From the IMG/VR virus record IMGVR_UViG_3300033068_000911, positions 5,537-69,536 of that record: a DNA stretch of 64,000 nt; one strand, 5' to 3'. The DNA is from a virus (taxonomy: Duplodnaviria; Caudoviricetes). The notes under the pieces are model-generated. The model searched no databases. It had not been told where the DNA came from and worked only from the letters and a program-made list of their open reading frames with translations. Positions 2,712-61,693 of this stretch are shown in pieces (positions within the stretch are counted from its first letter, which is position 1; each line of letters starts with the position of its first letter). The position numbers and the translations under genes are program-made.

Positions 2712-3413
2712 ATGAACAGCGTTAAGTCTGAGGGAAACATCGGCGTTTCCAGGATTCCACTTCTCAAGCGTCCGGCGATTCGCACGCTGGCCGATGCTAT
2801 TCGATACGGCTCTCCGCAGGTTAGCGATGCCAATATCGCTCGCCGTGACTGGCAGCGCGCAAATCGCAAGAACTTTGAGCGATCCTTGCATGACCAGCGA
2901 GCATTCGAGAGTGGCGATCGCGCAAGTCTCGGAAATCGTCTCGGAGTCATCGGCCATCTCTGGTTGGCGAAGGTGGGCCAGGGCGGGGGGGTTGCGGACC
3001 TGGGCCTCGCGTCCTGTCGCGTCGTGACTACTGCTGGCGTGAATTTCATCGTTGATGCATTCCAGAACCTCGTGGAACTCGAAGATATGAAGTATCACGG
3101 GATCGGCACCGGCACTACGGCTGAGGCGGTCGGCCAGACGGCTCTCATCACAGAGCTCTCTACGCAGTACTCGACCAGCAACACGCGCCCCGCTGGCTCC
3201 ACTGGCGAACAGTCTGGAAATGCCAACGTTTATGAGACGACGGCGACGATCACCGTTTCTGCGAGCGTCGCCGCGACTGAGCACGGCATTTTCTCGCGCG
3301 CAGCCACGGGTGGCGGCGTGCTTCTCGACCGTTCCGTATTCGCGGCAGTCAACCTCGCATCCGGTGAGTCGCTTCAGGCGACGTATTCTCTGACGTTCCC
3401 GAGTGGCGGCTAA
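2712..3413 (+). CDS. Virion structural protein (collar/fibre-base-like)
   Basis: GIGTGTTAEAVGQTAL...TEHGIFS...LLDRSVFAAVNLASGESLQATYSLTF resembles tail-collar/fibre N-terminal domains; GGAG SD. Confidence 0.55.
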   Translation: MNSVKSEGNIGVSRIPLLKRPAIRTLADAIRYGSPQVSDANIARRDWQRANRKNFERSLHDQRAFESGDRASLGNRLGVIGHLWLAKVGQGGGVADLGLASCRVVTTAGVNFIVDAFQNLVELEDMKYHGIGTGTTAEAVGQTALITELSTQYSTSNTRPAGSTGEQSGNANVYETTATITVSASVAATEHGIFSRAATGGGVLLDRSVFAAVNLASGESLQATYSLTFPSGG

Positions 3414-3441
3414 TCCTCCGATCCCGTGAGGGAAAGGGGTA

Positions 3442-5238
3442 TTGGTGGCGACACTTCCCTTCACTGACAGAACGTCTGTCAGTTTTACTGGCGCATCGCA
3501 GACGTCGAATTACCATGCATGGGCTAGCGGCATGGGGCCAGGTGCCGGATTACTGATCTGGTTGCACGGCGACGGCGCATACGAGCACAGCAATCCGACA
3601 AACACCTACTGTTTCGGCGGATCGAACGGTGTTGTCGCGCTCGCGAAGGCCAGGGGATACATCGTCATCTCTGCGCGCACGCCGGACAACACGGGCGATA
3701 TCACGTGGTGGGAATCGGGACAGACGCGCTCGAACTACCTCCAAGCGCTGATTACGTCACTTGTCAGTGGGTATGAGTCCGATCCGGCGAAGACCGTCCT
3801 TGCTGGATTCTCCGGTGGCGCGCAGCAGATCACGCAGTTCTACATGGACTATCAGCGTGATAATGCGCAAGGTGCCGGTACATGTGTTTTCGGCGGTGGC
3901 GAGGCTCCCGACAATGATCGCACCTATTCGACAGGACTTAAGAATTCCTGGAAAATGGGATGGATCGTCGGAGCCCTCGACACTGCCGCGAATGCTGAAG
4001 ATGGATTCGACGGACGCGGGGCGGCGGAATTTGGTGAGGCGTGGTTTCGCGGCAAAGGCTTTACGACGTCGATCAATGTACTTCCTGGGAAATATCATGA
4101 TCTGCCTGGCGAGTTCGGAACATATCTCGCCGGATGGATGGATGCAAACGGATTAGGTGGGAGTCCTCCGGTGGCACAGAATTCGCTCATGCCGTCTGGT
4201 GGAGTCCAGACCTTCACCGGAACCAATGGAACGCAGTGGATCAAGCCTGGAACCGTTGATTTCGTAGATGGTATTGACCAGGGTGTCGGCTGGGGATACT
4301 ACAACAACAATCAGGGCCGGATGCAATCCGGCACGACCGCTGGCTATCGGTTCAGTGCGCGATTGGATATCGCAGCGCGCGCGGATATCGAACTCCTTTT
4401 TGACTGGGTTATCCCATCAGGTGGCGAAGCGAGCGGGTATCCTCGCGTCCTCTTGCGTGGCGGTAGTGAACTCGACACAAATACGTCGTACTTCCTGACG
4501 CTTGAGCGTACTCAGATGGAAGTTGGTCGTTATAACGCGTCGTACTCCGGAACGACGATCACGACCAAATCTTACTCCGGTCGAAACGCTGGTGACATCG
4601 TTCGGACGCGTATTGCGATCTTCGGTAATAAGATCAAGGCGCGATCATGGCCTTCCTCAAATACCGAAGATGTCTCGACATGGGATATCGACATCACCGA
4701 TTCCACTGTTTCGGCAGCGGGATACTTCGGTATCACGATGGCTGGCAGTACGTCGGGTACGAAGTACTTCAGCATCGACAATTTCAACGCGTTCGACTCG
4801 GAGACCCCGAGCCAGAAGACGACAACGCAGTCTGGCTCGAATACTCCATCCGGAATCCTCATCAAGACAGTTCCAAAGCGTCCCGGTGGCTCACTGACGT
4901 CTTCTGGTGTTCTCTCGATTCGCCGCGTCGTGCTACGAACATTCAGCGGAAGCGTCAGTGTTGGCGGCGCGCTGAATGGCAAGTCCGGTCAGAAGAACAT
5001 GGGCGGTTCGGTCGCCCCCGTGGGCACACTTCGCAAGGTCGCGAGGAAGCGCGTCGGCGGAAGTATCGGCATCTCGGCTACGATTGACCGCAGGCTGTGG
5101 AAGCGACTCTTTGGACAGGTCGCCACAACAACTCACCGAAAACTAGAGAACAAAGGTCGAGTCTCCGGAAAGCCGGGAATCGTCATCATGTGGATCAACA
5201 AGGCGGGCGAATCTCGCGCACGGGTCAGGAAGGGGTAG
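3442..5238 (+). CDS. Virion protein: alpha/beta-hydrolase (esterase) + lectin-like beta-sandwich + basic repeats
   Basis: WLHGDG oxyanion region, GFSGG nucleophile elbow, candidate Asp (GALD) and His (KYHD); ConA-like RIAIFGNKIKARSW...WDIDITD segment; C-terminal K/R-G repeats. Confidence 0.65.
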   Translation: MVATLPFTDRTSVSFTGASQTSNYHAWASGMGPGAGLLIWLHGDGAYEHSNPTNTYCFGGSNGVVALAKARGYIVISARTPDNTGDITWWESGQTRSNYLQALITSLVSGYESDPAKTVLAGFSGGAQQITQFYMDYQRDNAQGAGTCVFGGGEAPDNDRTYSTGLKNSWKMGWIVGALDTAANAEDGFDGRGAAEFGEAWFRGKGFTTSINVLPGKYHDLPGEFGTYLAGWMDANGLGGSPPVAQNSLMPSGGVQTFTGTNGTQWIKPGTVDFVDGIDQGVGWGYYNNNQGRMQSGTTAGYRFSARLDIAARADIELLFDWVIPSGGEASGYPRVLLRGGSELDTNTSYFLTLERTQMEVGRYNASYSGTTITTKSYSGRNAGDIVRTRIAIFGNKIKARSWPSSNTEDVSTWDIDITDSTVSAAGYFGITMAGSTSGTKYFSIDNFNAFDSETPSQKTTTQSGSNTPSGILIKTVPKRPGGSLTSSGVLSIRRVVLRTFSGSVSVGGALNGKSGQKNMGGSVAPVGTLRKVARKRVGGSIGISATIDRRLWKRLFGQVATTTHRKLENKGRVSGKPGIVIMWINKAGESRARVRKG

Positions 5239-5240
5239 GG

Positions 5241-5549
5241 GTGTCTATATCCATTCCGGATCATGTGCCGTTCTTCGTTGGGCAGCGAATCCTCGTTGAA
5301 GTGGAGTTTCGCCTCCTCGGCGTCCCGACCGATCCAACGATCGTCCAGGTGGTATCGAAAAGTCCAGTTACCCATAGCCAAGCCACGCTTGTCTATCCTG
5401 ACGAGAATCTGACGCGAGTGGACACCGGACTCTACGAAGCGGCCATCATTGTGGACGATCCGGGACAATGGCACTTCCGCGCAGAAGGTGCGGGTGTTGT
5501 AGATGCAGTTACCGAAGTTGCGCTAGAGGTTCTACCGACTGGCGTATGA
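5241..5549 (+). CDS. Small Ig-like virion protein (hypothetical)
   Basis: GTG start directly after the previous stop; all-beta pattern with TGLYEAAIIVDDPGQWHFRAEG. Confidence 0.55.
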   Translation: MSISIPDHVPFFVGQRILVEVEFRLLGVPTDPTIVQVVSKSPVTHSQATLVYPDENLTRVDTGLYEAAIIVDDPGQWHFRAEGAGVVDAVTEVALEVLPTGV

Positions 5550-5716: not shown

Positions 5717-7177
5717 ATGAGTATCGCCGCCGTTGTCAATGCAGGGCGTCGCCTTATCGCGACAGCCTTCCTTGACTCATGCGCAATCGCGGACAGGGTC
5801 GAAGTCCGCGATTCGCGCGGCGGCACCAGGGCAACATGGGTCAACAGGCACAAGACGCCACCGCAGGTTGTCTCCGGCGGCAACGGCTCAACGGCGACCG
5901 TTGTTGCCAGAGACGACTCCGGCAAGATTCTCGGCACGTGGGTTTTGCCACTTTCGACACTGGAGACTATCGAAGACACGGGAAGTGTCGCTCCACTGGG
6001 CGAACTTACGAAGCAGGCTGCGAAGGAATTCACAGCAAGCCTCGTTGGCCAGGGCGTGGTTTCAGTGCTTCCGATGAAGAGCCTGAGCGGCAATATCACC
6101 ATTACAGGAGAGTTCACCAAGTTTGCGACGAAGCGCCTGACTGGTGGCGTCGCTCCGGCTGGAGGACTTCGTAAGGTCGTCTCGATTCACCTGCACGGCG
6201 CGATCGGAATAAGCGGCGAAACCCGCAAGGCTGCTCGGATCATCCGGGCGGGCGAGATTGCGGTAGGTGGTGACGCGCTTCCCGTCAAGCAGACTACGGA
6301 CATCGTTCTGGGCGGCGATATGACCATTGCGGGAGGGTTTACCAAGTTTGCGACGAAACGCCTGACCGGTGGCGTCACTTCGGCTGGCGTCGTAAACAAA
6401 GCTCCTCGCAAGCTTCTCGCTGGAACTGCAACATCTTCCGGGACTGTCGCGAAGTCTCCGCGTAAGCGACTGTCTGGATCATCCAAGCCTGTCGGAGTGG
6501 TGAAGCGAGGACCCGCGAAGCGATTCGCCGGAAGCGTTACGCCCAGTGGTGCCCTGTTTGCAGAGCGTGCGCCTGATGTCTTCACAGACTTCAATAGCGC
6601 GGTGGGCGGCGCGCCCTGGCCTGCTCCGTGGTCTCAAGTCCCGAGAGGTGACTCGATCGCGGAGGTGCGCGGTGGTCTCGGTCATCTTTCTGCTGACTCT
6701 ACCGTGGGCAACTATGAATGGACGGGCCAGGTGTTGATTGACGGTGTTCCTGGCCCCGTTGAAGTGATGTTCGACATTCGCCCGAACACTAATTCGCGAA
6801 CACACTTCTTGATGGTGGGAAGTTGGGATACTGGGAACGTTGTTGACGTCATCCCCTCCCCTTATTCCGACTCCGTAAGCAATACGTGGTTCAAAGTTCT
6901 TTCAAATTGGTCCGGACCTTCATATTCTACGGCAGGAGCGAGTGGCACGGGGGCGTGGTTTACTTTTCGGATTCGACTCGAAGTCGGTCGCTTGCGGTTG
7001 AAGCGCTGGGCGACTGGCTCCGCTGAGCCAGGCTCATGGAGCCTAGATATTACTGATGCAAATATCGCCTACGCCACTGCTGCATTCGCCTTCATTCAAG
7101 AGTCTTCTGTGAATGCCCTCAACTCCCCGGATTCTCGCTCGCTTGACGTCGATAATTTCAAGCTCTGGGAGTTGTAA
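5717..7177 (+). CDS. Fusion: N-terminal half of a head-closure-like protein + basic repeats + lectin-like domain
   Basis: First about 45 aa (FLDSCAIADRVEVRDSRGGTRATW) match the stopper N-terminal pattern; internal repeat FTKFATKRLTGGV twice; C-terminal RIRLEVGRLRLKRW...WSLDITD beta-sandwich. Confidence 0.55.
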   Translation: MSIAAVVNAGRRLIATAFLDSCAIADRVEVRDSRGGTRATWVNRHKTPPQVVSGGNGSTATVVARDDSGKILGTWVLPLSTLETIEDTGSVAPLGELTKQAAKEFTASLVGQGVVSVLPMKSLSGNITITGEFTKFATKRLTGGVAPAGGLRKVVSIHLHGAIGISGETRKAARIIRAGEIAVGGDALPVKQTTDIVLGGDMTIAGGFTKFATKRLTGGVTSAGVVNKAPRKLLAGTATSSGTVAKSPRKRLSGSSKPVGVVKRGPAKRFAGSVTPSGALFAERAPDVFTDFNSAVGGAPWPAPWSQVPRGDSIAEVRGGLGHLSADSTVGNYEWTGQVLIDGVPGPVEVMFDIRPNTNSRTHFLMVGSWDTGNVVDVIPSPYSDSVSNTWFKVLSNWSGPSYSTAGASGTGAWFTFRIRLEVGRLRLKRWATGSAEPGSWSLDITDANIAYATAAFAFIQESSVNALNSPDSRSLDVDNFKLWEL

Positions 7178-8348: not shown

Positions 8349-9632
8349 ATGAAGTGGAATCCGAAGGCCGTGGCGATCACGACGGCGGCGAGCCTTACTG
8401 CCGCCGCGCTCGTCGCAGCACCCGCCCTGGCCTCCAGTGAGGGCCAGGGCGGAGGTCAGTGCCGTACGCAGGCCGAAGCCCTCGCATGTCTCGACAGCCT
8501 GCGAGAGTACGTCCTGGCGCACCCTGATGCGCCGCTGCCGACGCCGACGCCGACAGCCCCAGCCCCCACGACATCCTCGCCAGCGCCGACGACTTCGGCC
8601 CCCACGACATCCTCGCCAGCGCCGACGACTTCGGCCCCCACGACATCCTCGCCGACGCCGACGACTTCGGCCCCCATGACATCCTCGCCGACGCCGACGA
8701 CCCCCGCGCCAACGAGCACGACAGTCCCTGCGAAGCCGTACGCTTCCGGTTTGCCGTGGTCGAGTGGCGCATTCACCGATCACAAGGCGTCCGTCGCGAA
8801 TGACTTCGCCGCGATGCGTGGCCGCGCGCTGGACAACATTTCGGTGTTTCCGTCGCGTGAGTCTTGGTCCGAGATGCAGAACTCCTGGTTTCTCGATTCC
8901 AAGCGAATCCCGAACGATTTCCAGGGTGACATTGTTGTTGGCGTGCCGCTGTGGCCCGAGAATGGCAGCCTCGGATCGAATGACGATGCCCAGTGGAAGA
9001 AGTTCGCTCAGACTGTCGCCGCCAAGGATTCCGACGCGATCGTTCGTCTCGGCTGGGAGATGAATTTGCCCGGATGGTATTTCCACATTACGAAGTCAAA
9101 TCAGGATCAGTGGGCCGCGAAGTTCAACAAGTCCGTTGAGGCCATGCATTCGGTAGCCCCGAATCTCCGGATTGCCTACAATCCGAACTGGGGTCCGGAT
9201 CAGACCAGTGGTGACAGTCGCCAGGTATTCCAGAAGGTCAAGCACAATGTCGATTACTACGGTATCGACATGTACGATGAGTGGCCTCCGGATACTTCCG
9301 ATAGCGCATGGCAGCAGCGACTCAATGGCGCTGGTGGTCTTCAGGACTCCCTGAACTATGCGAAGGCCAACGGCAAGAAGTTCGCATTGCCCGAATGGGG
9401 CGTAGCCTGCAACGGGTCCGGCTGCCAGTGGCAGGGTCACGCAGGCGGCGACAATCCTCGCTACGTGAATAACACTCTGGGATTCCTGATCCAGAACAAG
9501 GCACACGTGGCGTTCGATTCGTGGTTTAATGAGGATGGGAGTTACATCAAGTCCAACCTCGTTCCGACGACGACTAACCCGAAGGCTGCCGCAGCCTACA
9601 AGGCGAAGCTTACCGAGGCCGCAAACTCGTAA
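8349..9632 (+). CDS. Secreted glycoside hydrolase family 26 with Pro/Thr linker
   Basis: Sec signal peptide (MKWNPKAVAITTAASLTAAALVAAPALA); IVRLGWEMN (acid/base Glu), GIDMYD and FALPEWG (nucleophile Glu). Confidence 0.85.
   Translation: MKWNPKAVAITTAASLTAAALVAAPALASSEGQGGGQCRTQAEALACLDSLREYVLAHPDAPLPTPTPTAPAPTTSSPAPTTSAPTTSSPAPTTSAPTTSSPTPTTSAPMTSSPTPTTPAPTSTTVPAKPYASGLPWSSGAFTDHKASVANDFAAMRGRALDNISVFPSRESWSEMQNSWFLDSKRIPNDFQGDIVVGVPLWPENGSLGSNDDAQWKKFAQTVAAKDSDAIVRLGWEMNLPGWYFHITKSNQDQWAAKFNKSVEAMHSVAPNLRIAYNPNWGPDQTSGDSRQVFQKVKHNVDYYGIDMYDEWPPDTSDSAWQQRLNGAGGLQDSLNYAKANGKKFALPEWGVACNGSGCQWQGHAGGDNPRYVNNTLGFLIQNKAHVAFDSWFNEDGSYIKSNLVPTTTNPKAAAAYKAKLTEAANS
8562..8705 (+). repeat. Four tandem 36-bp units encoding APTTSSPAPTTS linker
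   Basis: Unit gcccccacgacatcctcgccagcgccgacgacttcg, read directly. Confidence 0.9.
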
Positions 9633-11474: not shown

Positions 11475-14400
11475 ATGCCAACGGTTGCAGAACTTGACGT
11501 CCTTATCGACGCCAATGACAAGGCTACTGCAACCCTCGCCAAAATCGACGCACTCATCAAGTCGATGGAAGGCGATGATGTCGCTTTCGACATCACGGCC
11601 AACGCTGACGACGCTACCGCCGATCTGACGCGAGTCGAGGCAGCCATCCGTGACCTGGATGGCGAAATCGTCAATATCTCGGTGGACCTGGATTCTGCCG
11701 CAGCATCGGCGGAAATTGCATCGCTAACGGCTTCCATTGAGCGTTTAGGCGATATGGTTGCCGATCCAGAGGTGGATATCGACACCGCCGCAACCCTTGC
11801 GCAGATCGAAGCCCTCCGAGCCCAACTTGAAGCGCTCGACAGCCAGAACGTCGATATCGACGTCGAAGCTGACACGGCGGCGGCTATGGCACAACTAGCC
11901 GCGCTTGAACGCATGGTCAGCGACCTTGATAGCAGCAACGTCGATATCGAAGTAGACGCCGACACTGCGCAGGCAACTTCAGAACTTCTGCGAATCGAAG
12001 CGCTTCTCGACCGAATCGGCAGCATAGTCGCTGGCCCCAAAGTTGACATAGACACCGCTGCCGCGCTAGCAGACCTTGCTGCACTCCGGTCGATGCTTCA
12101 GTCCTTGGATAACGACGACATCGACATTGATGTCGATGTCGATGTTGCCAGTGCCCTGGCGAAGATCGCAAGCCTTGAAGGGGCACTTGCGGCGATAGAT
12201 AATCGTGAAACCATCACCGTTGACGTTGATACGAAGAACGCTGCCGCGAATCTGCGAAAGCTCTCAAATGAGTGGCAGACGATGTCTGAGAACATCGACG
12301 GCACGGTGGCTGCGGTGCTCACGCTCTACCCCGCCCTGGCCCCCCTTGGCGGCGTCGCAGCGGCAGGTGTCGGAGCGCTCGCGACAGCCTTCACGACGGC
12401 GGGGATTGGCGCTGGCCTCTTCGGGGCCGTCGCCGTTTCCGCATTCGATGGAATCGGCGCAGCGCTAAAGGGTACGAAAGGTGCTTACGCTAAACTGGAC
12501 GCCGAGCAACGGAAGATGTTCGCCAGTATCCAGGAATTCCAGGGCGTCTGGAAGAACTTCGTAGATCAGTTCAAGCCTCAGGTTTTCGAGATTGCCACGG
12601 TCGGACTTAAGGGCATCGCGTCGATCCTGCCATCCCTTGCTCCCATCGTCGAGAACACGGGCAAGGCATTCCTAAACCTTGAGAAATCGGCAATCGCTGC
12701 ACTTCAAGGTCCATTCTGGCAATCGTTCATTTCCACGGTCGGGAGCAGCGTCCAGCCGATCCTTGAGGGTCTTGGCCGATCCATCGGCAACATTATCACC
12801 GCATTTGCGGGAATGGTGAAAGCCTTCACTCCATTGACCCTTGAGTTCGTCGCAGGACTTGAGGAGATGACCGCGGGCTGGGCTGCATGGGGCCAGTCGC
12901 TTTCATCCAATCATCAATTCCAGGCGTTTATTGACTATGCGAAGGAGAATCTTCCACGAGTTAAGCAATTCCTCATCGACCTAGGTAAGGCGTTCGTTGA
13001 CCTCATGCAAGCCGCCGCGCCCGTAGGTGCGGCAATGCTTGACATCGCAAGCAAGGCTCTTAGCGCTTTCTCAAGATTCCAGGATGCGCATCCCATGCTT
13101 ACGTCAGTTGCGGTTGCGCTCGGTTCTCTTGCACTCGCGGCAATGAAGGTCGGCGGGCCGCTTCTCAACATGGCCTCTGGTGGAAGCGCCGTCCTTGGCC
13201 TCATGAGAATTCTTCCGGCCCCGGTTCTCATTGCTGGTGCTGCGATTGCCGCGATCGCCGCAGCATTCGTCGTTGCCTACTCCGAGAGCGAAACTTTCCG
13301 CACGCAGGTCCAACAGGCCGTTAGTGCCGTTACGACATTCGTCCAAGCAGAAGTGAAGAAATGGGAGGATTTCTTTACCGAGTTTGGTGATGTTTTTGAC
13401 AAGGTTGGTCAGACGTGGGGTCCAGCACTCCGGAAAGCCTGGGACGGCGTAGTTGCCGCCGTTCAAGCCGGATGGGAGCGACTTAAAGGTATTCTTGAGG
13501 CGGCAATGGATGGGTTTCGCGGATCTATCCTCGCCTGGGCTGGCGGACTGTCCGGCGATTTCGGAACAATGTTCAAGGGTTTGGGCGATGCCGTCGTAGG
13601 CTTTGGAAAGGCGATTGGCTTAGCGATCAAAGCGATTCTCGATGGGCTTTCTGGTATCGGCGGTATTATTGCTGACGCAATTGCGGAAGTAACCCTTTCT
13701 GCACTTAAGGCAATTGCTGACTTCGCGGGACAGCTTTTCAAGTCGGGTGTGGCATTCTTCGCTGACTTTGCAAAGGGCCTCGCCCAAGGTGGCTCAGTCA
13801 TCGCTGGCATCATCCAGGGCATCATTGCCGGTGGCGCGGCATTCCTTCCTGGCTCTCCTGCCGAAAAGGGGCCGCTCTCCGGTAGTGGCTGGACGCATAC
13901 GCGAGGCGTCAACATGATGACCGACTTCGCAGACGGCATCACGTCAGCGTCGGGATTGGTAACATCGGCAGTTCAGTCGATCATGGATGCTATTGCAGCG
14001 ATTCTTAGCCAAGCAGGCGCTTCGTTCAATGTTGCATTCACTGCTGCATGGACTGGCATTCTTGAAAGCGTAACCGCTGAATGGTTGGCCATTCAGGCGG
14101 CCATTGATTCTGCGATGTCTGCCATTCGATCCGCAATCGACGCGGGAATGCTTGCAATTCAAGCTTCTGTCACTGCTGCAATGACAGCCGTTCAGGCAGC
14201 CATGACTAGCGGATGGACTGAGATTCAGGCGGCTATCGCGGCAGCGATGGCAGGCATTCAAACTGCTATCACAGCGGCAATGACGGCGATCCAAACCGCT
14301 ATTGAATCTGCAATGACAGCCATTCAAGCCGCGATGACCTCGCAGTGGCAGTCAATTCAGAACGCCGTGACCGCTGCGATGACGGCGATCCAGACGAGCA

Positions 14401-16634
14401 TTCAGACAGCAATGTCCACAATCCAGACTGATATTACAAGCGCAATGCTTGCGATTCTGCTCGTCATGACTTTGCAGTGGCAGGCAATCCAGATCGCCGT
14501 GCAGAATGCCATGCTGGCCATTCAGACGACGATTCAAGCCGCGATGATGCAGATTCAGAATGACATCACCGCTGCGATGCTCGTCATCCAGGCTGCCATG
14601 ACCACACAGTGGCAGGCCATCCAGACCGCGATCCAGACTGCAATGCTGGCTATTCAACTCATTGTCCAGACTGGCATGACTCAGATTCAGACGGCCATCC
14701 AGAATGGCATGACACTGATTCAGGCAGTCATGCTCACGTCATGGGCATTAATTCAAGTCACCGTGCAGACAGCATTGATCGCCATCCAGACTGCCGTAAT
14801 CGTAGGAATGGCGGCAATCGTAGCGGCAGTTACGGCGGGAATGACTGCAATGAGTCTTGCTGTAACTTTGGGCATGACTGCAATGACGCTGGCAGTTACC
14901 ACAGGCATGACTGCGATGACACTGGCCGTCACCGTGGGCATGACTGCGATGGCCGCTTCAGTGACCGCTGGCATTGCTCTCATCGTTGCCAGCATGGCAG
15001 CGGGCTGGGCGCAAGTTCAGGCCACCGTTCAAGCAGTTCTTACAGTCATTGAGACAATCATCAATGTCTCGTGGAGTATGACCATTCCTGGCTCCATTAT
15101 GGCGGCGCTGGCAACGCTCGCCGGGATCGTCACAGCCGGATGGGCTCCGGTACAGGCTGCTGTTCAGGCGGTCTTGACGGTAATCGAGACAATCATTAGC
15201 GTTTCGTGGAGTATGACCATTCCCGGCTTTATTATGGCGGCGCTGGCAACGCTCGCCGGGATCGTCACAGCCGGATGGGCTCCGGTACAAGCCGCCGTTC
15301 AGGCAGCTCTTACGGCTATCGAAACGATCATTAGCGTTTCGTGGAGTGCGACCATTCCTGGCTTTATTCAGCAGGCACTTGCAGTCATCGTCGCCAATGT
15401 AGCGGCAGGCTGGGCTCAGGTTCAGGCTGCCGTACAGACAGCGATGACTGCAATCCAGACTGCTGTTCAGACAGCATGGACAGCTATCCAGACTGCCATT
15501 CAAACAGCAATGACAACGATTCAAAGTATTGTCACGGCTGGCTGGACTGCAATTCAGAGTGCTGTCACCACGGCCATGACTGCAATCCAGACTGCCGTGC
15601 AGACGGCATGGACGGCCATCCAGACTGCCGTTCAGACGGCAATGACGCAGATTCAGAATATCATCACCACCGCATGGACGGCTATCCAGAACGCTGTACA
15701 AACTGCACTTACGGCGATTCAAAATGCCGTGCAGACCGCTTGGCAGGCAATCCAGAACGCTATTCAGACTGCAATGACGCAGATTCAGAATATCATCACT
15801 ACCGCATGGACGGCTATCCAGAACGCTGTACAAACTGCACTTACGGCGATTCAAAATGCCGTGCAGACCGCTTGGCAGGCAATCCAGAACGCTATCCAAA
15901 CTGCCATGACCGCGATCCAAAACCTCATCACCTCGGCTTGGCAGGCAATTCTTACGGCAATTCAGAGCGCATTGAACACAATTCTCAGCGCCGTGACAAG
16001 TACATGGAATCAGATCGTCAGTGCCGTTCAAAGCGCAATGACCAGCCTAGTTAACGCGATTACTCAAGGAATGTCTCAGGCAGTCTCTGCTATCCAGAAT
16101 GGCCTAAGTCAGATGCTCAGTGCCATTACAAGTGCCGCTGGGCAATTCGCGAGCGCAGGCCTAGCGCTCATGCAGAACTTTGCTTCGGGTATCGCCTCGG
16201 GTGTTAGTGCCGCCGTCTCGGCTGTCAGTAGCGCAGTTTCCGCAGTCACCGCACTTCTACCTGGCTCTCCGGCGAAAATCGGACCCCTCTCCGGTCAAGG
16301 CTGGACGCAGGTCCGTGGCCGCCACTTGGTGGAAGACCTCGCCGCAGGCCTGGAATTCACGCGCCCGCTGGACCGGGCAGCCTCCGCCCTGGCCAACTCG
16401 ATGGCCTGGCCCCTTGACGGCATGGCACGATTCGATGCGCTCGCCGGGGGCCAGGGCTGGGGGGTCGGTGGCTTGGGTCGAGAGGGTTCCGCGCCGATCA
16501 CCATCACGGTCGAGGCCGGTGCCATAGTCTTGACTCTCGGAGAAGGCGTTGATCCCGAAGCGGCGCGAAGCGCATTCGACAGCGCGGGTGATGAGATTGC
16601 CAGCGCACTCCTGACCGCCCTGCAACGCCGATGA
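11475..16634 (+). CDS. Tape measure protein (1719 aa)
   Basis: Longest ORF; DVDADT-type N-terminal repeats, Ala/Gly/Ile-rich helices, long run of about 11-aa repeats (IQTAIQTAMTA) with periodic Trp. Confidence 0.95.
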   Translation: MPTVAELDVLIDANDKATATLAKIDALIKSMEGDDVAFDITANADDATADLTRVEAAIRDLDGEIVNISVDLDSAAASAEIASLTASIERLGDMVADPEVDIDTAATLAQIEALRAQLEALDSQNVDIDVEADTAAAMAQLAALERMVSDLDSSNVDIEVDADTAQATSELLRIEALLDRIGSIVAGPKVDIDTAAALADLAALRSMLQSLDNDDIDIDVDVDVASALAKIASLEGALAAIDNRETITVDVDTKNAAANLRKLSNEWQTMSENIDGTVAAVLTLYPALAPLGGVAAAGVGALATAFTTAGIGAGLFGAVAVSAFDGIGAALKGTKGAYAKLDAEQRKMFASIQEFQGVWKNFVDQFKPQVFEIATVGLKGIASILPSLAPIVENTGKAFLNLEKSAIAALQGPFWQSFISTVGSSVQPILEGLGRSIGNIITAFAGMVKAFTPLTLEFVAGLEEMTAGWAAWGQSLSSNHQFQAFIDYAKENLPRVKQFLIDLGKAFVDLMQAAAPVGAAMLDIASKALSAFSRFQDAHPMLTSVAVALGSLALAAMKVGGPLLNMASGGSAVLGLMRILPAPVLIAGAAIAAIAAAFVVAYSESETFRTQVQQAVSAVTTFVQAEVKKWEDFFTEFGDVFDKVGQTWGPALRKAWDGVVAAVQAGWERLKGILEAAMDGFRGSILAWAGGLSGDFGTMFKGLGDAVVGFGKAIGLAIKAILDGLSGIGGIIADAIAEVTLSALKAIADFAGQLFKSGVAFFADFAKGLAQGGSVIAGIIQGIIAGGAAFLPGSPAEKGPLSGSGWTHTRGVNMMTDFADGITSASGLVTSAVQSIMDAIAAILSQAGASFNVAFTAAWTGILESVTAEWLAIQAAIDSAMSAIRSAIDAGMLAIQASVTAAMTAVQAAMTSGWTEIQAAIAAAMAGIQTAITAAMTAIQTAIESAMTAIQAAMTSQWQSIQNAVTAAMTAIQTSIQTAMSTIQTDITSAMLAILLVMTLQWQAIQIAVQNAMLAIQTTIQAAMMQIQNDITAAMLVIQAAMTTQWQAIQTAIQTAMLAIQLIVQTGMTQIQTAIQNGMTLIQAVMLTSWALIQVTVQTALIAIQTAVIVGMAAIVAAVTAGMTAMSLAVTLGMTAMTLAVTTGMTAMTLAVTVGMTAMAASVTAGIALIVASMAAGWAQVQATVQAVLTVIETIINVSWSMTIPGSIMAALATLAGIVTAGWAPVQAAVQAVLTVIETIISVSWSMTIPGFIMAALATLAGIVTAGWAPVQAAVQAALTAIETIISVSWSATIPGFIQQALAVIVANVAAGWAQVQAAVQTAMTAIQTAVQTAWTAIQTAIQTAMTTIQSIVTAGWTAIQSAVTTAMTAIQTAVQTAWTAIQTAVQTAMTQIQNIITTAWTAIQNAVQTALTAIQNAVQTAWQAIQNAIQTAMTQIQNIITTAWTAIQNAVQTALTAIQNAVQTAWQAIQNAIQTAMTAIQNLITSAWQAILTAIQSALNTILSAVTSTWNQIVSAVQSAMTSLVNAITQGMSQAVSAIQNGLSQMLSAITSAAGQFASAGLALMQNFASGIASGVSAAVSAVSSAVSAVTALLPGSPAKIGPLSGQGWTQVRGRHLVEDLAAGLEFTRPLDRAASALANSMAWPLDGMARFDALAGGQGWGVGGLGREGSAPITITVEAGAIVLTLGEGVDPEAARSAFDSAGDEIASALLTALQRR

Positions 16635-22905: not shown

Positions 22906-22921
22906 GTCACGAAAATCACCC

Positions 22922-22960
22922 AAGGGGGGGCACGAGAGCGGAAAATCTCGTGCCCCCCTT
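22922..22960 (+). terminator. Strong hairpin ending the structural/lysis operon
   Basis: aagggggggcacgaga / tctcgtgcccccctt stem; no U-tract. Confidence 0.5.
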
Positions 22961-46002: not shown

Positions 46003-46568
46003 TGGCGACCTTTCGCATCGTGGGCAAGTACCCGATCAATGAGCGCCACGAGTCGGCGCAAACCTTCCTTGCGGACATGGACGGTCGGCTTATCCCTATC
46101 TGCGTTTGCCGCGCTACGCACGGTAGCCAGCAGGTCAGCTTCGTCCTTCGTGAGCGTCAGCGGGGGCAGCCCAGCGCCCTGGCCTGCTCGATTCCGTCCG
46201 TATGCTGCGGTCGGTCGGTTGCCCACATGCTCGGGGAGAACGTAAACTGAGCACTTTACGCGCTGCACGGTGGCGAGACGCGCGATGACTCCGGCTTTAT
46301 GGAGGTTGCTGAGCGCCCCTGTAGCCATTCCGTGATGCCAGTGATAATGCGCTGCGAGGTCACGCCAGGTGGCACCGAGCGGCCCCGTCGCGTCGAGAAA
46401 CGTCACAACCTCGCGCTGCCGTCGCGCCGTTGTGCCGTCTGCATCTTCGCGCTCTCGCGCCTCTGCGCTGGCTTGCGATCCGCCACGTCCGGATGTCCCG
46501 CCGTATGGCATCACGCCATCATCGGGCAGGCCAGCGTCGAACTCTGGATCACTCGTTGTCGTCGTCAT
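45999..46568 (-). CDS. Putative winged-helix DNA-binding protein
   Basis: GATWRDLA...HHGMATGALSNLHKAGVIARL. Confidence 0.55.
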   Translation of the reverse strand: MTTTTSDPEFDAGLPDDGVMPYGGTSGRGGSQASAEAREREDADGTTARRQREVVTFLDATGPLGATWRDLAAHYHWHHGMATGALSNLHKAGVIARLATVQRVKCSVYVLPEHVGNRPTAAYGRNRAGQGAGLPPLTLTKDEADLLATVRSAANADRDKPTVHVRKEGLRRLVALIDRVLAHDAKGRQ

Positions 46569-47221: not shown

Positions 47222-47594
47222 CGAGCGTCGGAGCTTTCGGGCGTCGCAAATTACAACGCTGGTGAACCATGCGATCGCCTCGCGCGAACGGATTATCAAC
47301 GATGCGAAGCGAGTGGTCTAGCTCCAGTCGCTCAGAGCGAAGCATCGTCTCCCCGCATAGTGGGCAGATGCGCTCTTGCGGCGGGAGGCGAAACAGCGCA
47401 CGCATAAGCCGCGTTCTGGTCCGCTGGTGCTCGCCGCCATAGCCGCGCATCGCGGCAGTTCCTCGGGTCCGCTCATGCTCCTTGCGATGCTCGTCGCATA
47501 AATTGTCATCTCGGGAGGCCAGGGCGGGGCAATTGCGGCGTTCGCCGTCTTCGTCAACGATCTTCGCTGAGCAGGTCCGTCGCGCGCGGGGCAT
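47211..47594 (-). CDS. HNH endonuclease (terminase-associated type)
   Basis: LCDEH...RGYGGEHQR...CPLCG...LELDH...MVHQRCN. Confidence 0.75.
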   Translation of the reverse strand: MPRARRTCSAKIVDEDGERRNCPALASRDDNLCDEHRKEHERTRGTAAMRGYGGEHQRTRTRLMRALFRLPPQERICPLCGETMLRSERLELDHSLRIVDNPFARGDRMVHQRCNLRRPKAPTLVDD

Positions 47595-48159
47595 TCTTGA
47601 TCTTCTCCTTCCACTCCGTGAATCCGATATATTGCGGACACTCGAATCCTGGCACCCAGTAGCCGAACATGTGCGGCTTTCCGTCGATCCACATTCCAGC
47701 GACGGCCATCGTGTGAATCCATGCACGAACGACGATCGAGTCGATGGGCTCCGGTTCGCGGTATCCGACGCAAACGCGAGTTCGCGTGTCGTTTTCGGTG
47801 GGCTCGCGGTGATCCCATATCTGCGCTCGCTTCATCTCGCCATGACCGTCGAGTGCCCAGCCGCGCGCGTAGGTCGCCGCCGCTCGCCCGCCCTGGCCTA
47901 CGATGAGCCTGAGTGATCCGGTAATGCTTGCGCTGGTCGGATATGACTCGTGCAGTGCAACGGACTTGACGCGACCCTCGGGATTGACTTTGCTTGGCCG
48001 CGTCCATTCAATGAGAATCGGAACGTTCGTCGCGCGCACAAGCGGCTCGTGGATTACGGGGGGTTTCCATGATTTGTCGACTTCTGGCGGACGCTTGAAC
48101 AGGTCCGGGTTCTCATGAGGAAGCAAGGAGATGTACTTTCGCCTTAGCTTTCCCTGCAA
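47554..48159 (-). CDS. Hypothetical protein
   Basis: Open frame that fills the - strand operon; start uncertain. Confidence 0.45.
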   Translation of the reverse strand: MQGKLRRKYISLLPHENPDLFKRPPEVDKSWKPPVIHEPLVRATNVPILIEWTRPSKVNPEGRVKSVALHESYPTSASITGSLRLIVGQGGRAAATYARGWALDGHGEMKRAQIWDHREPTENDTRTRVCVGYREPEPIDSIVVRAWIHTMAVAGMWIDGKPHMFGYWVPGFECPQYIGFTEWKEKIKNAPRATDLLSEDR

Positions 48160-50721: not shown

Positions 50722-51194
50722 TTCTGCAACCTAGGCACGTCGATCGTCAATGGCTGGTCGCTGTAGATGATCGGAAGGTCCGTCTGAACCATCGTGCCAT
50801 CCGCAAGAAAGAAGAACTTGCCAGGATCGCCATCACCATAGGTGTTGTCATCCTGCTTGGAATCGAGAACATGGCACGACTCATAACTAGTGCCCTTGCA
50901 AATGACCTCTTGTTCTGGGCCAATCTGAGAGCCGGACGACGAAACCTTGCCTTTGATGACGTAATACCCGATGACGCTGCCGTAACTGACGATGTAGACG
51001 TAGCCAACGTTCGACGGGTCGTTTTCCCGCTTCGCGAGTTCGCGGAGATTCTTCTGCTCTAGCGACTGGCCCTGGATGACTGCGCTGTTTTTCTGTTCTT
51101 GCTTGCGCTGTTCGTACTCTTCGCCCGTGCATCCGGTCAGGGCCAGGGCGGTGGTTACCGCCAGCGCCGCGATACGTCGATGCGTCGTTTTCAC
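50718..51194 (-). CDS. Lipoprotein
   Basis: Signal peptide with lipobox LTG-C. Confidence 0.75.
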   Translation of the reverse strand: MKTTHRRIAALAVTTALALTGCTGEEYEQRKQEQKNSAVIQGQSLEQKNLRELAKRENDPSNVGYVYIVSYGSVIGYYVIKGKVSSSGSQIGPEQEVICKGTSYESCHVLDSKQDDNTYGDGDPGKFFFLADGTMVQTDLPIIYSDQPLTIDVPRLQK

Positions 51195-51598
51195 AGATCA
51201 TCCTTACTGGGCATGCAATCCAGCGCGGGATCGCTGATGTCAATCCTGTCGGGGAGTTCCATGTCTCGGAAGTCTTTCGAGTTGTACTCGTTGGACTTGC
51301 TGTTGTATTCGGCAATGCGACTCAGGCAGTACGTCTGAGTGCCAAGCATGTTCTGCTGTGCGGTCTTGTCGTCCGGATTGGCCTTCGCCGCCTTCGCGAG
51401 AACGTCAAGCTTCATGTCCGTGGCGCGGATGTCTTCGATGATCCGATGAAACTCCTGCTGCGCCTGGACTCGGTTGACGCCCGACTGCTGATTTCGGTAC
51501 GCGTCGGCTTGACCGCGAGGTCCGGCGAGCCAAACGCCGCCGCCGATGGCCAGGGCGGTGGTTGCGGCCAGCGCCACTGCTGCGATCGTCCGATTCAT
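51191..51598 (-). CDS. Membrane-anchored or secreted helical protein
   Basis: N-terminal hydrophobic segment; YCLSRIAEYNSKS motif. Confidence 0.6.
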   Translation of the reverse strand: MNRTIAAVALAATTALAIGGGVWLAGPRGQADAYRNQQSGVNRVQAQQEFHRIIEDIRATDMKLDVLAKAAKANPDDKTAQQNMLGTQTYCLSRIAEYNSKSNEYNSKDFRDMELPDRIDISDPALDCMPSKDDL

Positions 51599-52073: not shown

Positions 52074-52413
52074 GGCTACCTCTTCCTCTCTTCGTCATTT
52101 GTCCTGTTGGCGAATCCTTGTGCGTTTCCGCGTAGAATTCACCCCTGTCGATGTATCGGCCTTTCCTGGCGAACCAATGCAGTCGAGCGCCCCGACCGAT
52201 CCGAACGGCACCCACGCGGTGCCTGCGCGCCGCCCTGGCCACGTAGACTACTGTCGCCTCACCTTCCCTCTTGTCGTCGGGGATGATCCAGAATCCCTTG
52301 TGCCCGCCAACTGGTGGCGCTTCACACCAGAACTCTCCGACTCTTCGCTCTTCGGTGGCATCGGTGTTGATCTGCGTCCACTCGATGTAGGAACCAGCCA
52401 TCCCGGCCCGCAT
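52051..52413 (-). CDS. Hypothetical protein
   Basis: Coupled to the nuclease stop codon. Confidence 0.5.
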   Translation of the reverse strand: MRAGMAGSYIEWTQINTDATEERRVGEFWCEAPPVGGHKGFWIIPDDKREGEATVVYVARAARRHRVGAVRIGRGARLHWFARKGRYIDRGEFYAETHKDSPTGQMTKRGRGSHVRSDHD

Positions 52414-55358: not shown

Positions 55359-55670
55359 TCACTTACTTGCCTTCCTTCGATGTGTGATCGGAAATGCCGC
55401 GATGTTGGCCAGGGCGGGGGGGTCGGCGGCTCGGACTTGCCGCCACGCGAAGCCTGGCGGCGGTTCGCCGTGAAACGCCAGGCCAATGGCTCGTGCTGCG
55501 CTCATCTTCACTACGCCGCCCTCGTGACGCATGCGAAGCATGGGCGTGCCACCCCCCGATGTCGTCGCTTTCAGTGACCTCCTGGCACCGATCCGGCACA
55601 CCTCGCCTGCCTCCGATGCGAGGTAGTTCAGGGCTCCGACGCGACGCCATGCGGGCTCCTCGTCTTCCAT
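55359..55670 (-). CDS. Degenerate NUMOD4-HNH-like protein
   Basis: WRRVGALNYLASEAGEVCR...LKA...LRMRHEG...ARAIGLAFHGEPP...LANI follows the NUMOD4-HNH layout but lacks the catalytic His residues. Confidence 0.5.
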   Translation of the reverse strand: MEDEEPAWRRVGALNYLASEAGEVCRIGARRSLKATTSGGGTPMLRMRHEGGVVKMSAARAIGLAFHGEPPPGFAWRQVRAADPPALANIAAFPITHRRKASK

Positions 55671-55796
55671 GCCCTCATCCTGACACATGGGGGCACATTT
55701 TTGCAAGCTTTTTGGGGTGTCTAGGGAAATCTTGGGCTGTCTAGGGAAATCTAGCGTCAATCCAATACAACAGAGCCCCGAAACGGCCAAAATCGG

Positions 55797-56008
55797 TGCC
55801 CCCCGCGTGCCCCACCACAAATGTCCTATAAAGCCACCCTGAGCAGCCGAAAGGGCCAAAAGTTAGGTAAGCCTTGGGGGCAGGGGGGGCAGTTTCGCTA
55901 TCCTTCCCCCCGCGCCCAGGCGGCAGGCTAGGTAGGGCCGAATTCCGCCCCACCCTGCCCCCTCTTCGCGTTTTCGCAGGTCAAGTGGCACTTTTGGGGG
56001 GGCACGGC
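55797..56008. repeat. G/C-tract locus B (inverted copy of 22931..23143)
   Basis: See locus A; best-matching core 55855..55983. Confidence 0.85.
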
Positions 56009-56216
56009 TTCGAGCCCCCTCCTGCCCCCTCCTGCCCCCCTTTTTGCGCCCCTTTGGGAACCGCCCGTCGGCCCGCCGCGCCCTGGCCCCTCCCCGGCTG
56101 GAAGGGTCGAATTCGCTCATCTCAGGATCGCTGGCTGGCGCTGGGGTCGATCGTGGGTGTCAGTGCCAGCCTGTCTCAGATCGCCGCTCAGGGCGGCTCG
56201 CGTGTAGCCTGGTGCC

Positions 56217-56607: not shown

Positions 56608-58026
56608 CTACTGCTTCGTTCCTCGCATTCGCTCGCTACGCGGGGAGCCTACTCGCTGTGTCAAATCCGGCGCATTTGAGTGCGCGAAACCGAACTCGGT
56701 GAGGATGTGGCGGCGGCGGGCCGCTTCGGCGCGCTGCAACAGGTTCGTTCCTCGAACGTGGTTGATCCGTGCGATGACTTCATGCCGCGTTCGCCCGCCT
56801 CGCTTCTCGGCTCGGGTGACGATCGCGCACTTGCCCATGTAGCCGGTCGAGACGTCGATCCGGTAGGACACCTCGGCGTCGGAGCCGCCGACCCCTCCGC
56901 CCTGGCCCCTGCCGCATTTCTCGACGTCCTTGTGCGTCTTGGCGAGGCTTGAGCAGGTCTTGAGGTCCGTCTTGCCGACCGACGCACCCACCACGTCGAT
57001 GATGAGCGCCTCTGTCTTGCCTCGACTGAGGCGCAGCACGCGACCGACCATCTGGGTATAGAGAGCCCTGCTGGCCGTTGGCCGGGCAATGACCGCGACT
57101 TCGAGTTGCGGCATGTCGAATCCCTCGGTCAGTACCATGACATTGACGAGCACCTGAATTTGCCCGCGCCGCGTTCGGTGATAGATGAGTTCCCGATCTT
57201 CTGCCTTCGTATCGCCGCTGATGACGGCAGCCGGAATCTTCCGGGTCGTGAAGGCCTTGGCGATCTCCGTCGCCAAGGCGACAGTCGGTGCGAAGACGAC
57301 ACCTTGCTTGTATGGACAATGGTCTCGGTAGGCTTGTGCGACTGCTTCGGGAGCATGCGCGTCCTGCATTGCCTTGCCGAGTTCCGTGGCGCTCAGATCG
57401 CCTGAGCGTGTCTTCCTGACGCCCTCCAGGCGAAGCTCCGACAGGACGACCGTCTTCGTCTTCGGTTTCACGAGATAGCCGTTGTCGATTGCATATCTGA
57501 TGTCTCGGGTATAGACGACTTTCTGCCAAACGTCACCTAGGCCCAGGTCGTCGGATCGTTCGAGCGTCGCCGTGAATCCGGCAACCCTCGTGTCCTTGAA
57601 TCCCCCAAGACCCTTGATCGTCGCCATGTAGGTGTTCGCTACGGCGTGGTGACATTCATCCACGATGACAAGCCCGACTTTGCCGAGCGCTTGGCGTCGA
57701 GCCTCGGAACGTCCGAGCGTTTGGACGCTGGCGACGATGACCTGATTGTCAACCTCATTCCGGGACGCCTTGACGATTCCGACATTTAAGCCTGGATTCC
57801 AGTGCTCGACCTTCTCCTTGGCCTGAGTGACCAGTTCGTCGCGATGCACGAGAACGAGAGCCTTGCTGCCGACATTGCTTCTCAGGTGACGGGTAATCAG
57901 GTTGCTGAAGATGACCGTCTTGCCCATGCCGGTTGGGAGTAGGACAACGAGGCGATTCGCATTGCCTCGTTGCCACTCGGCCTCTAGTGCATTGAGCGCT
58001 TCGGTCTGATAGGGCCGGAGCTTCAT
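56608..58026 (-). CDS. SF2 DEAD/DEAH-box helicase (RadD/Irc3-like)
   Basis: LRPYQ Q-motif, LPTGMGKT, DECHH, TAT, VLTEGFD, QMVGRVLR. Confidence 0.92.
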   Translation of the reverse strand: MKLRPYQTEALNALEAEWQRGNANRLVVLLPTGMGKTVIFSNLITRHLRSNVGSKALVLVHRDELVTQAKEKVEHWNPGLNVGIVKASRNEVDNQVIVASVQTLGRSEARRQALGKVGLVIVDECHHAVANTYMATIKGLGGFKDTRVAGFTATLERSDDLGLGDVWQKVVYTRDIRYAIDNGYLVKPKTKTVVLSELRLEGVRKTRSGDLSATELGKAMQDAHAPEAVAQAYRDHCPYKQGVVFAPTVALATEIAKAFTTRKIPAAVISGDTKAEDRELIYHRTRRGQIQVLVNVMVLTEGFDMPQLEVAVIARPTASRALYTQMVGRVLRLSRGKTEALIIDVVGASVGKTDLKTCSSLAKTHKDVEKCGRGQGGGVGGSDAEVSYRIDVSTGYMGKCAIVTRAEKRGGRTRHEVIARINHVRGTNLLQRAEAARRRHILTEFGFAHSNAPDLTQRVGSPRSERMRGTKQ

Positions 58027-59802: not shown

Positions 59803-59871
59803 GATTCCTCCGTTGCTGAAGTTTGATTCCCCCACCCTCCCCACGTGCAAGACGTGGGGAAGATGCGAGGA

Positions 59872-60765: not shown

Positions 60766-60798
60766 GTCGCCACGCCCTTCCGTCGTTGTTGTGGTGCC

Positions 60799-60830
60799 AG
60801 CTTAGCACCATACATACGGGGAGATGTCAA
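60799..60830 (-). promoter_or_regulatory. Leftward promoter with conserved leader (long spacer)
   Basis: TTGACA-N20-TAAGCT, then GCACCACAACAACGACGGAAGGGCG. Confidence 0.5.
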
Positions 60831-60877
60831 GTCCCTTGCCCTGCCCATGTTGCTAGAACGTGAGCAAGACGAACGAC

Positions 60878-61693
60878 TCAATCCTTGATGAACTCGGCCT
60901 TATTCGGGCGAGTGAAGAAACCGAACTCGACGTCTTCGCGCGACCGCTCAACGCGTGCCGTGAACGTGACCCGCTTGCCTTTGAGGTGGTCAAGCCAGCA
61001 TTCCGGGCCGTAGTCATATACACTCTTGACGGACTCCCGCCATTCGTAGTAGGCCTCTTCGGCAAGGCTACTGGCGAGCGATCCGTAGATACGGAAACCT
61101 CGATCGTCCGCGATAGTCACCTTGTGACTTGATCCCCACTGAGTCTCGACAGACTTGGCGCTTACGATCGTTCCGGTGATGACGCCGCGCCCTTCGATAA
61201 CTTCGGTTTTCGGGCGCGCAGCCTCGGCCTTCTCCTTGTCGATGACCCGCACCATCGCGGCTGCCATCGGTTCGGTCATGAAGCCCTCATTGAGTGCTTT
61301 ATCTCGCATTGAGGTGACGAACGGATTCCGCGTTGCCACGTTGCCCCATTCGTCCACTTCGAGCGATTCAAGATAGGCCATGACTTCGGGGTACTTGCGA
61401 CGCAGGGCATCCACCTTTGCATCACGCTTCGCGACCAGTTCGAGCCGCTTCGCCTCTGCGGCCGCGATTCGCCGCGCCCTGGCCTTCGCCCGCGTCTTCG
61501 CGTGCTTGACTGCTGCATCACGGTCGCCAACTTTGCGACCGAGACGACCCGCAAGGACGCCTCCACAGGCGTAGCAGATCGAATCGAACCCGTTGAACGA
61601 GTACTGTCCCGTCCCGCCGCACCTGCGGCACCCAGCGTAATACTTCCCATTGTGGAAGATGTAGTTGTATCCCTCGATGCCTTCGTTTTTCAT
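60878..61693 (-). CDS. Zn-ribbon + OB-fold-like protein
   Basis: CRRCGGTG...CYACGG; C-terminal ITGTIVSAK...HKVTI...RVTFTARVE. Confidence 0.6.
   Translation of the reverse strand: MKNEGIEGYNYIFHNGKYYAGCRRCGGTGQYSFNGFDSICYACGGVLAGRLGRKVGDRDAAVKHAKTRAKARARRIAAAEAKRLELVAKRDAKVDALRRKYPEVMAYLESLEVDEWGNVATRNPFVTSMRDKALNEGFMTEPMAAAMVRVIDKEKAEAARPKTEVIEGRGVITGTIVSAKSVETQWGSSHKVTIADDRGFRIYGSLASSLAEEAYYEWRESVKSVYDYGPECWLDHLKGKRVTFTARVERSREDVEFGFFTRPNKAEFIKD

Follow-up and report, generated by a model that had tools for sequence, protein, structure and literature searches.

What function could maintain one ten-base word, GGCCAGGGCG, at dozens of places in a viral genome, on both strands and in every reading frame? 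The question arises from a 64,000-nucleotide stretch of DNA (the window, to whose numbering positions refer) that comprises bases 5537-69536 of the 69,536-bp IMG/VR virus record IMGVR_UViG_3300033068_000911, a tailed phage (Caudoviricetes). CheckV rates the whole record as 96% complete. The original prediction, made from the letters and their translations, took the word for a cis-acting DNA signal and offered an unranked list of functions for it. Our analysis establishes that the enrichment is real and strongly selected at the DNA level. As to function, we propose, at a little short of an even chance, that the phage's own primase-polymerase (prim-pol)/helicase uses the copies as template recognition sites arranged in a grid.

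All 37 positions and strands originally listed proved to be exact matches (18 plus, 19 minus), and the entire genome holds 41 copies (20 plus, 21 minus), corresponding to 590 per Mb. The reversed word, taken as a control, occurs nowhere in the genome. Dinucleotide shuffles of the window yielded a mean of 0.29 copies and a maximum of 3, and Markov models of orders 0-3 predict 0.25-0.53. The earlier estimate of the guanine-plus-cytosine (GC) content, 62%, has to be corrected to 58.3%. Shuffling synonymous codons left 4.3 ± 1.5 copies and shuffling the codon order 2.6 ± 0.8, compared with 37 observed (both figures count the two copies outside the shuffled open reading frames (ORFs)). The enrichment survives these codon-preserving shuffles, and therefore a dicodon-type explanation fails. 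The word is also sharply bounded: its 30 one-mismatch variants together occur 11 times as against 41 exact copies, which is close to the background level (about 12 expected), and the commonest 10-mers of the genome after the word are its own extensions.

In agreement with a DNA-level signal, the copies in the window occupy all six frame and orientation classes, being read as Ala-Leu-Ala (ALA, 15), Pro-Trp-Pro (PWP, 6), Gly-Gln-Gly (GQG, 5), Ala-Arg-Ala (ARA, 5) or Arg-Pro-Gly (RPG, 4), with two intergenic copies; these are the peptides that had been predicted. Thirty-five of the 37 sites lie within ORFs, 12 in the orientation of the gene and 23 opposite to it, which is not a significant imbalance and fits the lack of polarity with respect to transcription noted before. 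The triplets GCC-CTG-GCC encode 15 of the 43 Ala-Leu-Ala tripeptides (0.8 expected), and the rare AGG codon is used in 6 of the 17 Ala-Arg-Ala tripeptides. In G001, the closest capsid relative (capsid 80% identical), the orthologous proteins differ in residue at nearly all of the roughly 13 alignable sites, where they carry ALV, FTA, SLA, GRG, VRA, ART or RLDGL; hence the word was built by amino-acid-changing substitutions. Codon shuffles, frame usage and protein changes together uphold a cis-acting DNA signal rather than a codon effect. The statement that the flanks vary needs qualification. Among the 37 sites, position -3 is G in 29, position +1 is G or C in 34, and positions +2, +3 and +4 are G in 24, 29 and 25, respectively, giving the extended word G-N-N-GGCCAGGGCG-S-G-G-G. 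Since the sites sit in different frames, this bias is part of the signal; the flanks are soft and one-sided, and to that extent the earlier description holds.

On the plus strand, exact copies stand at 2976-2985, 6047-6056 (read GQG), 18837-18846 (ARA; VRA in G001), 22125-22134, 25573-25582 (GQG; GRG in G001), 28744-28753, 31817-31826 (within the prim-pol gene), 34434-34443 (ARA; ART in G001), 40010-40019 (in the gene for an HNH-FtsK fusion), 43540-43549, 47517-47526, 51141-51150, 51548-51557 and 55407-55416. Three further plus-strand copies (starting at 22750, 22801 and 22852; 22750-22861) fall one per unit of a 51-bp tandem repeat; this three-unit repeat (22750-22900) would encode a low-complexity peptide whichever strand is coding. 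Minus-strand copies are located at 6612-6621 (PWP), 12332-12341 (in the tape-measure gene, ALA; ALV in G001), 16385-16394, 18963-18972 (ALA; FTA in G001), 23246-23255, 24744-24753 (in the VirB4-like gene, ALA; SLA in G001), 26780-26789, 29351-29360, 35194-35203, 37639-37648, 40286-40295 (again in the HNH-FtsK gene), 42168-42177 (in the sigma-factor gene), 46175-46184, 47889-47898, 52231-52240, 56079-56088, 56898-56907 (in the helicase gene) and 61475-61484. The sites at 35194 and 43540 lie outside ORFs on a crude gene map. The remaining two copies, at 8423 (minus) and 8442 (plus), form a divergent inverted pair with a 9-bp spacer (8423-8451) inside a coding region, that is, a perfect 10-bp inverted repeat in the N-terminal part of an ORF.

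The even spread over both strands stood up to a spacing test, in that the gaps on each strand are more regular than chance. Relative to random placement over the whole genome, the minus-strand gaps have a coefficient of variation of 0.475 (P = 0.0003-0.0004) and the plus-strand gaps one of 0.59 (P = 0.016) with the 51-bp tandem triple counted once, or 0.71 (P = 0.09) without this collapse. Pooling of both strands gave P = 0.03-0.08, and the longest pooled gap, 4577 bp, is short for chance (P = 0.016). In addition, the strand labels alternate beyond expectation (27 runs versus 20.4, P = 0.02). The regularity is therefore clearest strand by strand. Because several related tests were applied to a single genome, we rate the spacing evidence as moderate only. 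A preference for a plus site followed by a minus site within 800 bp (9 of the window's 14 short gaps) weakened over the whole genome (9 versus 3) and was dropped.

Which protein might read such a word? The best candidate is a 791-amino-acid protein encoded at 31480-33855 on the plus strand, whose predicted architecture, PrimPol domain, helix bundle, D5_N and superfamily 3 (SF3) helicase, is assigned by PHROGs, Pfam (PF09250, PF08706, PF19263) and fold matches. The Pfam domains are PrimPol (PF09250, E = 3.7e-23), D5_N and DUF5906, the last being the SF3 helicase. A model of the N-terminal 400 residues (mean predicted local distance difference test score, pLDDT, 79.7) places a helical bundle at residues 196-315 behind the catalytic domain, and Foldseek matched it to the prim-pol plus helix bundle of pRN1 ORF904 (3M1M, E = 3.7e-7; 9AAM, template modelling (TM) score 0.50) and to the NrS-1 N300 structures 7RR4, 6JON and 6A9W. 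Neither PolA, PolB nor a DnaG-type primase was found in the genome; the prim-pol is the only recognisable primase or polymerase. Both enzymes matched by fold are sequence-specific: through their helix bundles, NrS-1 polymerase recognises 5'-TTTGGTTA-3' and 5'-GTGG/GTGA-3', and the pRN1 enzyme 5'-GTG-3' (PMC8718748). The base immediately 5' of its site is where NrS-1 polymerase initiates, with base skipping possible (PMC8718748).

On the model of pRN1 ORF904 and NrS-1 polymerase, binding of the ten-base word on a single-stranded template would fall to the helix bundle of the phage enzyme, and its catalytic domain would then initiate the primer one or two positions 5' of the word. The complementary (template) strand carries the site as 5'-CCC-S-CGCCCTGGCC-3'; variants of relatives read CGCCTTGGCC and CGCCGTGGAG, the latter being the one that the G411-type enzyme would be expected to prefer. 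In composition, the word of this phage is followed by one G or C and then by GGG; a primer would start with (S)GGG, and the purine- and G-rich flank lies on the side where an NrS-1-like enzyme would initiate. If the prim-pol is the sole primase and, as it appears, very sequence-specific, then every strand would need a start site each few kilobases, be it for discontinuous synthesis or for re-starting. Even cover of each strand with the strands interleaved is what such per-strand priming needs. Selection would have written the roughly 20 sites per strand wherever the proteins tolerate Ala-Leu-Ala, Gly-Gln-Gly, Ala-Arg-Ala, Arg-Pro-Gly or Pro-Trp-Pro, and the inverted pair at 8423-8451 would represent a divergent pair of start sites. 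Primase start sites headed the list of functions in the original prediction, and motif family, enzyme fold, flank asymmetry and spacing make them its best supported item.

The motif family emerged from relatives of the enzyme. Single-query searches with the prim-pol, the VirB4-like protein and the HNH-FtsK fusion gave no close relatives; an alignment of prim-pols was needed as query. Full-length prim-pol homologues, 34-54% identical, are encoded on contigs of 69-78 kb that are syntenic with this phage. The word GGCCAGGGCG itself is absent from 80 capsid relatives and four complete relatives. Each prim-pol relative listed here is enriched in a word of its own: GGCCARGGCG in L379 (prim-pol 53% identical; 9 copies in 15 kb), GGCCAAGGCG in L380 (49%; 10 in 22 kb), GGCCANGGCG in L381 (47%; 22 in 22 kb), CTCCACGGCG in G411 (46%; 33 in 78 kb, 22 plus and 11 minus, with a single copy of the reversed control), CGCCACGGCG in G413 (46%; 12 in 69 kb against 1.3 ± 1.0 expected) and CGCCACGGA in G414 (43%; 20 in 44 kb). 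These words exceed synonymous-codon shuffles three- to thirty-fold and occur in several frames. Alignment unites them in a single family, (NN)CCA-N-GGCG with a purine after it, or CGCC-N-TGG on the other strand; the TGG core of the template strand is common to all variants, and it is extended to GTGG in G411, G413 and G414. The purine follows the word at 25 of 33 sites in G411, 10 of 12 in G413 and nearly all sites in L379-L381. Similarity of the motifs declines with prim-pol identity (53, 49, 47, 46 and 43%), though GGCCAGG is shared even by G001, whose prim-pol is just 21% identical, and the VirB4-like module is a confounder of the prim-pol lineage. In G413 the prim-pol is present and the VirB4-like and HNH-FtsK genes were not detected, and the family word is still enriched.

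Several observations weigh against the priming reading. An invariant 10-mer is far longer than the 3-8-nucleotide sites known for this enzyme class, and the template-strand word CGCCCTGGCC contains CTGG and not the GTG core of the pRN1 and NrS-1 sites. Every genome with one of the strongest grids (this phage, G411 and L379-L381) also has the VirB4-like/HNH-FtsK module, which makes it hard to separate the module from the prim-pol lineage. The G001 prim-pol has the same architecture at only 21% identity, yet CGGCCAGGA, which shares GGCCAGG, is enriched in that phage (loci L081-L084): of its 46 copies, 36 share one strand, and most are read in frame as xTC-CTG-GCC, three-fold above the dicodon expectation. 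G412 and L384 possess the enzyme, and no clear family member was seen in either. Even spacing is only weakly significant in G411 and not significant in G414. Mycobacteriophage Gengar, whose PrimPol domain is 40% identical and fused to a DnaB-like helicase, is without a grid and displays only the known start-associated motif and another short motif; the grid is therefore not general to all PrimPol phages. Partly because every known site of the class is shorter than these ten invariant bases, we hold prim-pol recognition just under even; the start of priming beside the word is likewise proposed by analogy.

The shared module brings a second putative reader into play, an HNH nuclease fused to an FtsK/SpoIIIE-type ATPase that lacks a gamma domain (39708-41342, plus strand). 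Here the word would be read by conjugation-like machinery, the fusion protein loading, orienting or nicking at dispersed DNA-transfer signals akin to an origin of transfer (oriT), FtsK-orienting polar sequences (KOPS) or TraB recognition sequences (TRS). We consider this unlikely, even though a VirB4-like AAA_10 ATPase, a 616-amino-acid membrane protein, an SLT+VanY hydrolase and ArdC are encoded along with the fusion, which resembles the coupling protein of a type IV secretion system (T4SS), and even though the strongest grids co-occur with this module and G001 combines an HNH-FtsK protein at 49% identity with the GGCCAGG core. Streptomyces TraB reads 8-bp repeats, and the resemblance to KOPS that had been pointed out is genuine at the level of sequence, GGCCAGGG being one mismatch away from the consensus GGGNAGGG. 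It extends neither to the protein nor to the layout of the sites. The FtsK gamma domain (PF09397) is absent at E <= 1, no other winged-helix reader was found in the genome, and the HNH-FtsK protein ends about 20 amino acids past its motor; known translocase signals are polar, whereas the 20 plus and 21 minus sites here are interleaved. Furthermore, G413 keeps a member of the motif family without the module, and the identity of the VirB4-like proteins is flat (38-41%) across relatives with differing motifs.

Quite unlikely in our view is a signal directed at the host, either a Chi-like sequence that tames RecBCD or AdnAB on linear phage DNA, or a word of the uptake type that the host chromosome also carries. 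To our knowledge, no Chi or uptake sequence has been established in Actinobacteria. The layout does match that of Chi and uptake sequences in its two orientations, its even spacing, its use of every frame with a preference for peptides that proteins tolerate, and its inverted pair, and Chi-rich phages are documented (PMC3784561). Known Chi sequences comprise only 5-8 nucleotides, however, and the phage has its own exonuclease and resolvase. Variants of the motif are found in related phages of 58%, 62%, 66-68% and 69% GC, which probably have different hosts; a family across phages of differing GC therefore fits a phage-encoded reader better than a host reader. Nor did 406 Actinomycetota genomes, among which the host itself was not identified, show a comparably sharp enrichment. 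Their word densities range from 0 to about 430 per Mb, compared with 590 per Mb in the phage, and the word-dense genomes sampled have 72-75% GC, except for a 5.7-kb sample of G118 at 68%. In G303, at 60 kb the only dense genome with enough sequence, other GC-rich 10-mers are as frequent as the word, which there has 163 one-mismatch neighbours. Among genomes of moderate GC in which the word far outnumbers its control, densities do not exceed about 100 per Mb, and sharpness is lacking. This aggregate statement also holds without the 15 of 401 sampled genomes that are flagged as unpublished (G130, G011, G184, G401, G236, G058, G249, G028, G346, G158, G092, G278, G328, G353 and G098). When IMG/VR was scanned for the 14-mer GGCCAGGGCGCGGG and for the word paired in tandem or inverted, all hits were background and came from GC-rich contigs, in which the word is in-frame Ala-Leu-Ala on one strand and devoid of the G-rich flank. 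The compositional bias of a very GC-rich host was rejected as a source of the word: the phage has 58% GC, and in genomes of 72-75% GC the word is one among many of equal frequency.

The uptake, nick, condensation and partition sites that had been listed beside primase start sites gained no specific support. Programmed single-strand nicks or site-specific modification of virion DNA, as in T5-like and tf/LUZ24-like phages, would suit a long, asymmetric, exact word in tens of copies on both strands, and HNH, SNase-like and endonuclease VII genes are encoded. We regard this as improbable: neither C5 nor N4/N6 methyltransferases are detectable in the genome, no nuclease is tied to the word, and the even per-strand spacing and the purine start of one flank are left without evident reason. 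The least credible proposal is functionless accumulation by biased repair or gene conversion (for example, very-short-patch repair at CCWGG, as the word contains CCAGG; biased repair has been proposed to account for iterated words like cyanobacterial HIP1) or a site for a nucleoid-condensing or partition protein, given one-mismatch neighbours at background (11 versus about 12) with transition precursors not clearly depleted, ten invariant bases plus flanks that exceed any known repair context, many sites that needed amino-acid changes, and a regularity that a duplex-binding protein would impose on pooled gaps and that is stronger per strand. Two further candidates were rejected: promoters of the phage sigma factor, because the sites lie within genes in both orientations, and actinophage stoperators or start-associated sequences, which are intergenic and in one orientation and do not match 35 of 37 sites in ORFs, 12 of which run with the gene and 23 against it.

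The gene content around the grid is that of a siphovirus, with a scaffold protein, a major capsid protein, a 1719-amino-acid tape-measure protein and tail proteins. The tail genes are followed by the VirB4-like AAA_10 ATPase, the 616-amino-acid membrane protein and the SLT+VanY hydrolase, and then by PrimPol/helicase, exonuclease, endonuclease VII and the HNH-FtsK fusion; the leftward arm encodes a sigma factor, an amidase endolysin, JAB/YdjM/2H genes, an SNase-like nuclease, a helicase and ArdC. Actinobacteriophages and Actinomycetota genomes hold the nearest database relatives of the replication protein, which makes an actinobacterium the probable host. A megablast of 8 kb against 50,697 phage records gave zero matches. 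VirB4-like ATPase, membrane protein, SLT+VanY hydrolase, HNH-FtsK fusion and ArdC make up a Gram-positive-type T4SS-like gene set within a tailed-phage genome (23379-30662, 39708-41342 and 59872-60765), which is kept at 28-41% identity in G001, G411, G414 and L379-L382 and absent from G412 and G413. The sigma-70 family factor (41892-42557, minus strand) comprises regions 2, 3 and 4; no such factor was detected in G001-G004. Prok-JAB, YdjM-like and 2H-phosphoesterase genes lie side by side (43429-45687, minus strand), and JAB and YdjM are neighbours in L380-L382 too.

Other iterated words were encountered in this phage and its relatives. Two non-coding stretches of about 260 bp (22900-23160 and 55780-56050), 33 kb apart, inverted and 82% identical, are dense with GGGGGCA(G) words in either orientation and hold 17 of the 23 copies in the window. 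With their iteron-cluster look they bring to mind ori and crr in satellite phage P4, which likewise has a primase-helicase, the alpha protein; the GGGGGCA(G) word is also enriched in the relatives L383/G413, L392 and L397. G001 bears a tandem array of GTGAGTG-type repeats at 67.7-69.7 kb, and G411 (loci L527-L530), whose complete genome of 77.9 kb has terminal repeats, additionally contains TTGACAAC 21 times. In the capsid relatives L052, L055, L065, L070, L071, L072 and L076 (about 69% GC), the palindromic 10-mer CGAGCTCGAG occurs 16-36 times per 5-16 kb, far denser than other words, and L079, a distant capsid relative of 62% GC, contains GTGTAACA 13 times and CTTGTTACAC 7 times in 21 kb.

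On a broader scale, we entertain, with the balance tilted somewhat against it, a model in which actinophage-like siphoviruses of 69-78 kb form a clade whose evolution went hand in hand with that of a prim-pol of unusual stringency, the grid of 10-nucleotide start sites on both strands being paid for with many amino-acid changes. As the densest grids accompany the T4SS-like module and ArdC, the grid may also serve complementary-strand synthesis after transfer of single-stranded DNA. If the priming reading is right, the sequence specificity of a primase can shape a whole viral genome, proteins included. The recognition sequence of an uncharacterised prim-pol would then be readable from genome statistics, which would allow cheap assignment of specificities across an enzyme family that is large and little studied, and supply defined template-enzyme pairs for structural work on DNA reading by the helix-bundle domain. 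Phage engineering would face a constraint, as recoding may destroy start sites. Should one of the rivals hold instead, the word would be a new translocase, nickase or host-nuclease signal in Actinobacteria.

Among known systems, Neisseria DNA uptake sequences and Pasteurellaceae uptake signal sequences share much of the layout, being 9-12 nucleotides long, evenly spread on both strands, present in all frames with tolerated peptides and in part arranged as inverted pairs; they belong to chromosomes of naturally competent bacteria, and no such host genome turned up among those searched. Chi and Chi-rich phages likewise offer a short, asymmetric, over-represented word that acts on one strand and is usable in both orientations on linear DNA. 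Chi is set by the host nuclease, enriched in the host, 5-8 nucleotides long and usually biased in orientation, in contrast to the 20 plus and 21 minus sites here and a motif that varies among phages. KOPS, SpoIIIE recognition sequences and TRS are G-rich words too, and an FtsK-family motor is encoded here; they are 8-mers, polar or clustered, and read by gamma or winged-helix domains, which the protein of this phage lacks. Compared with the octamers TGTGGTTA and TGTGGGCA of coliphages and a Pseudomonas phage, GGCCAGGGCG is longer and sharper and belongs to another phage clade and host phylum. The T7 gp4 primase recognises 5'-GTC-3' sites with preferred pentamers, a cryptic 3' part and synthesis towards the 5' side of the template. 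It, too, is a sequence-specific primase, but of the DnaG/Toprim type and with very short sites that need no genome-wide enrichment. The closest likeness in architecture and fold is to pRN1 ORF904 and NrS-1 polymerase, which combine PrimPol, helix bundle and SF3 helicase; as with their sites, the word is asymmetric and would be read on one strand, the TGG core of the motif family recurs in NrS-1 sites, and the flanks observed here fit initiation 1-2 bases 5' of the word. Their sites measure 3-8 nucleotides, whereas the phage has 10 invariant bases plus flanks, about 20 times per strand, evenly placed and made by non-synonymous change. In the literature searched, we found no description of a selected genome-wide grid of prim-pol sites. 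Sequence-specific priming is already known; such a grid of a 10-nucleotide site would be a new variant of it.

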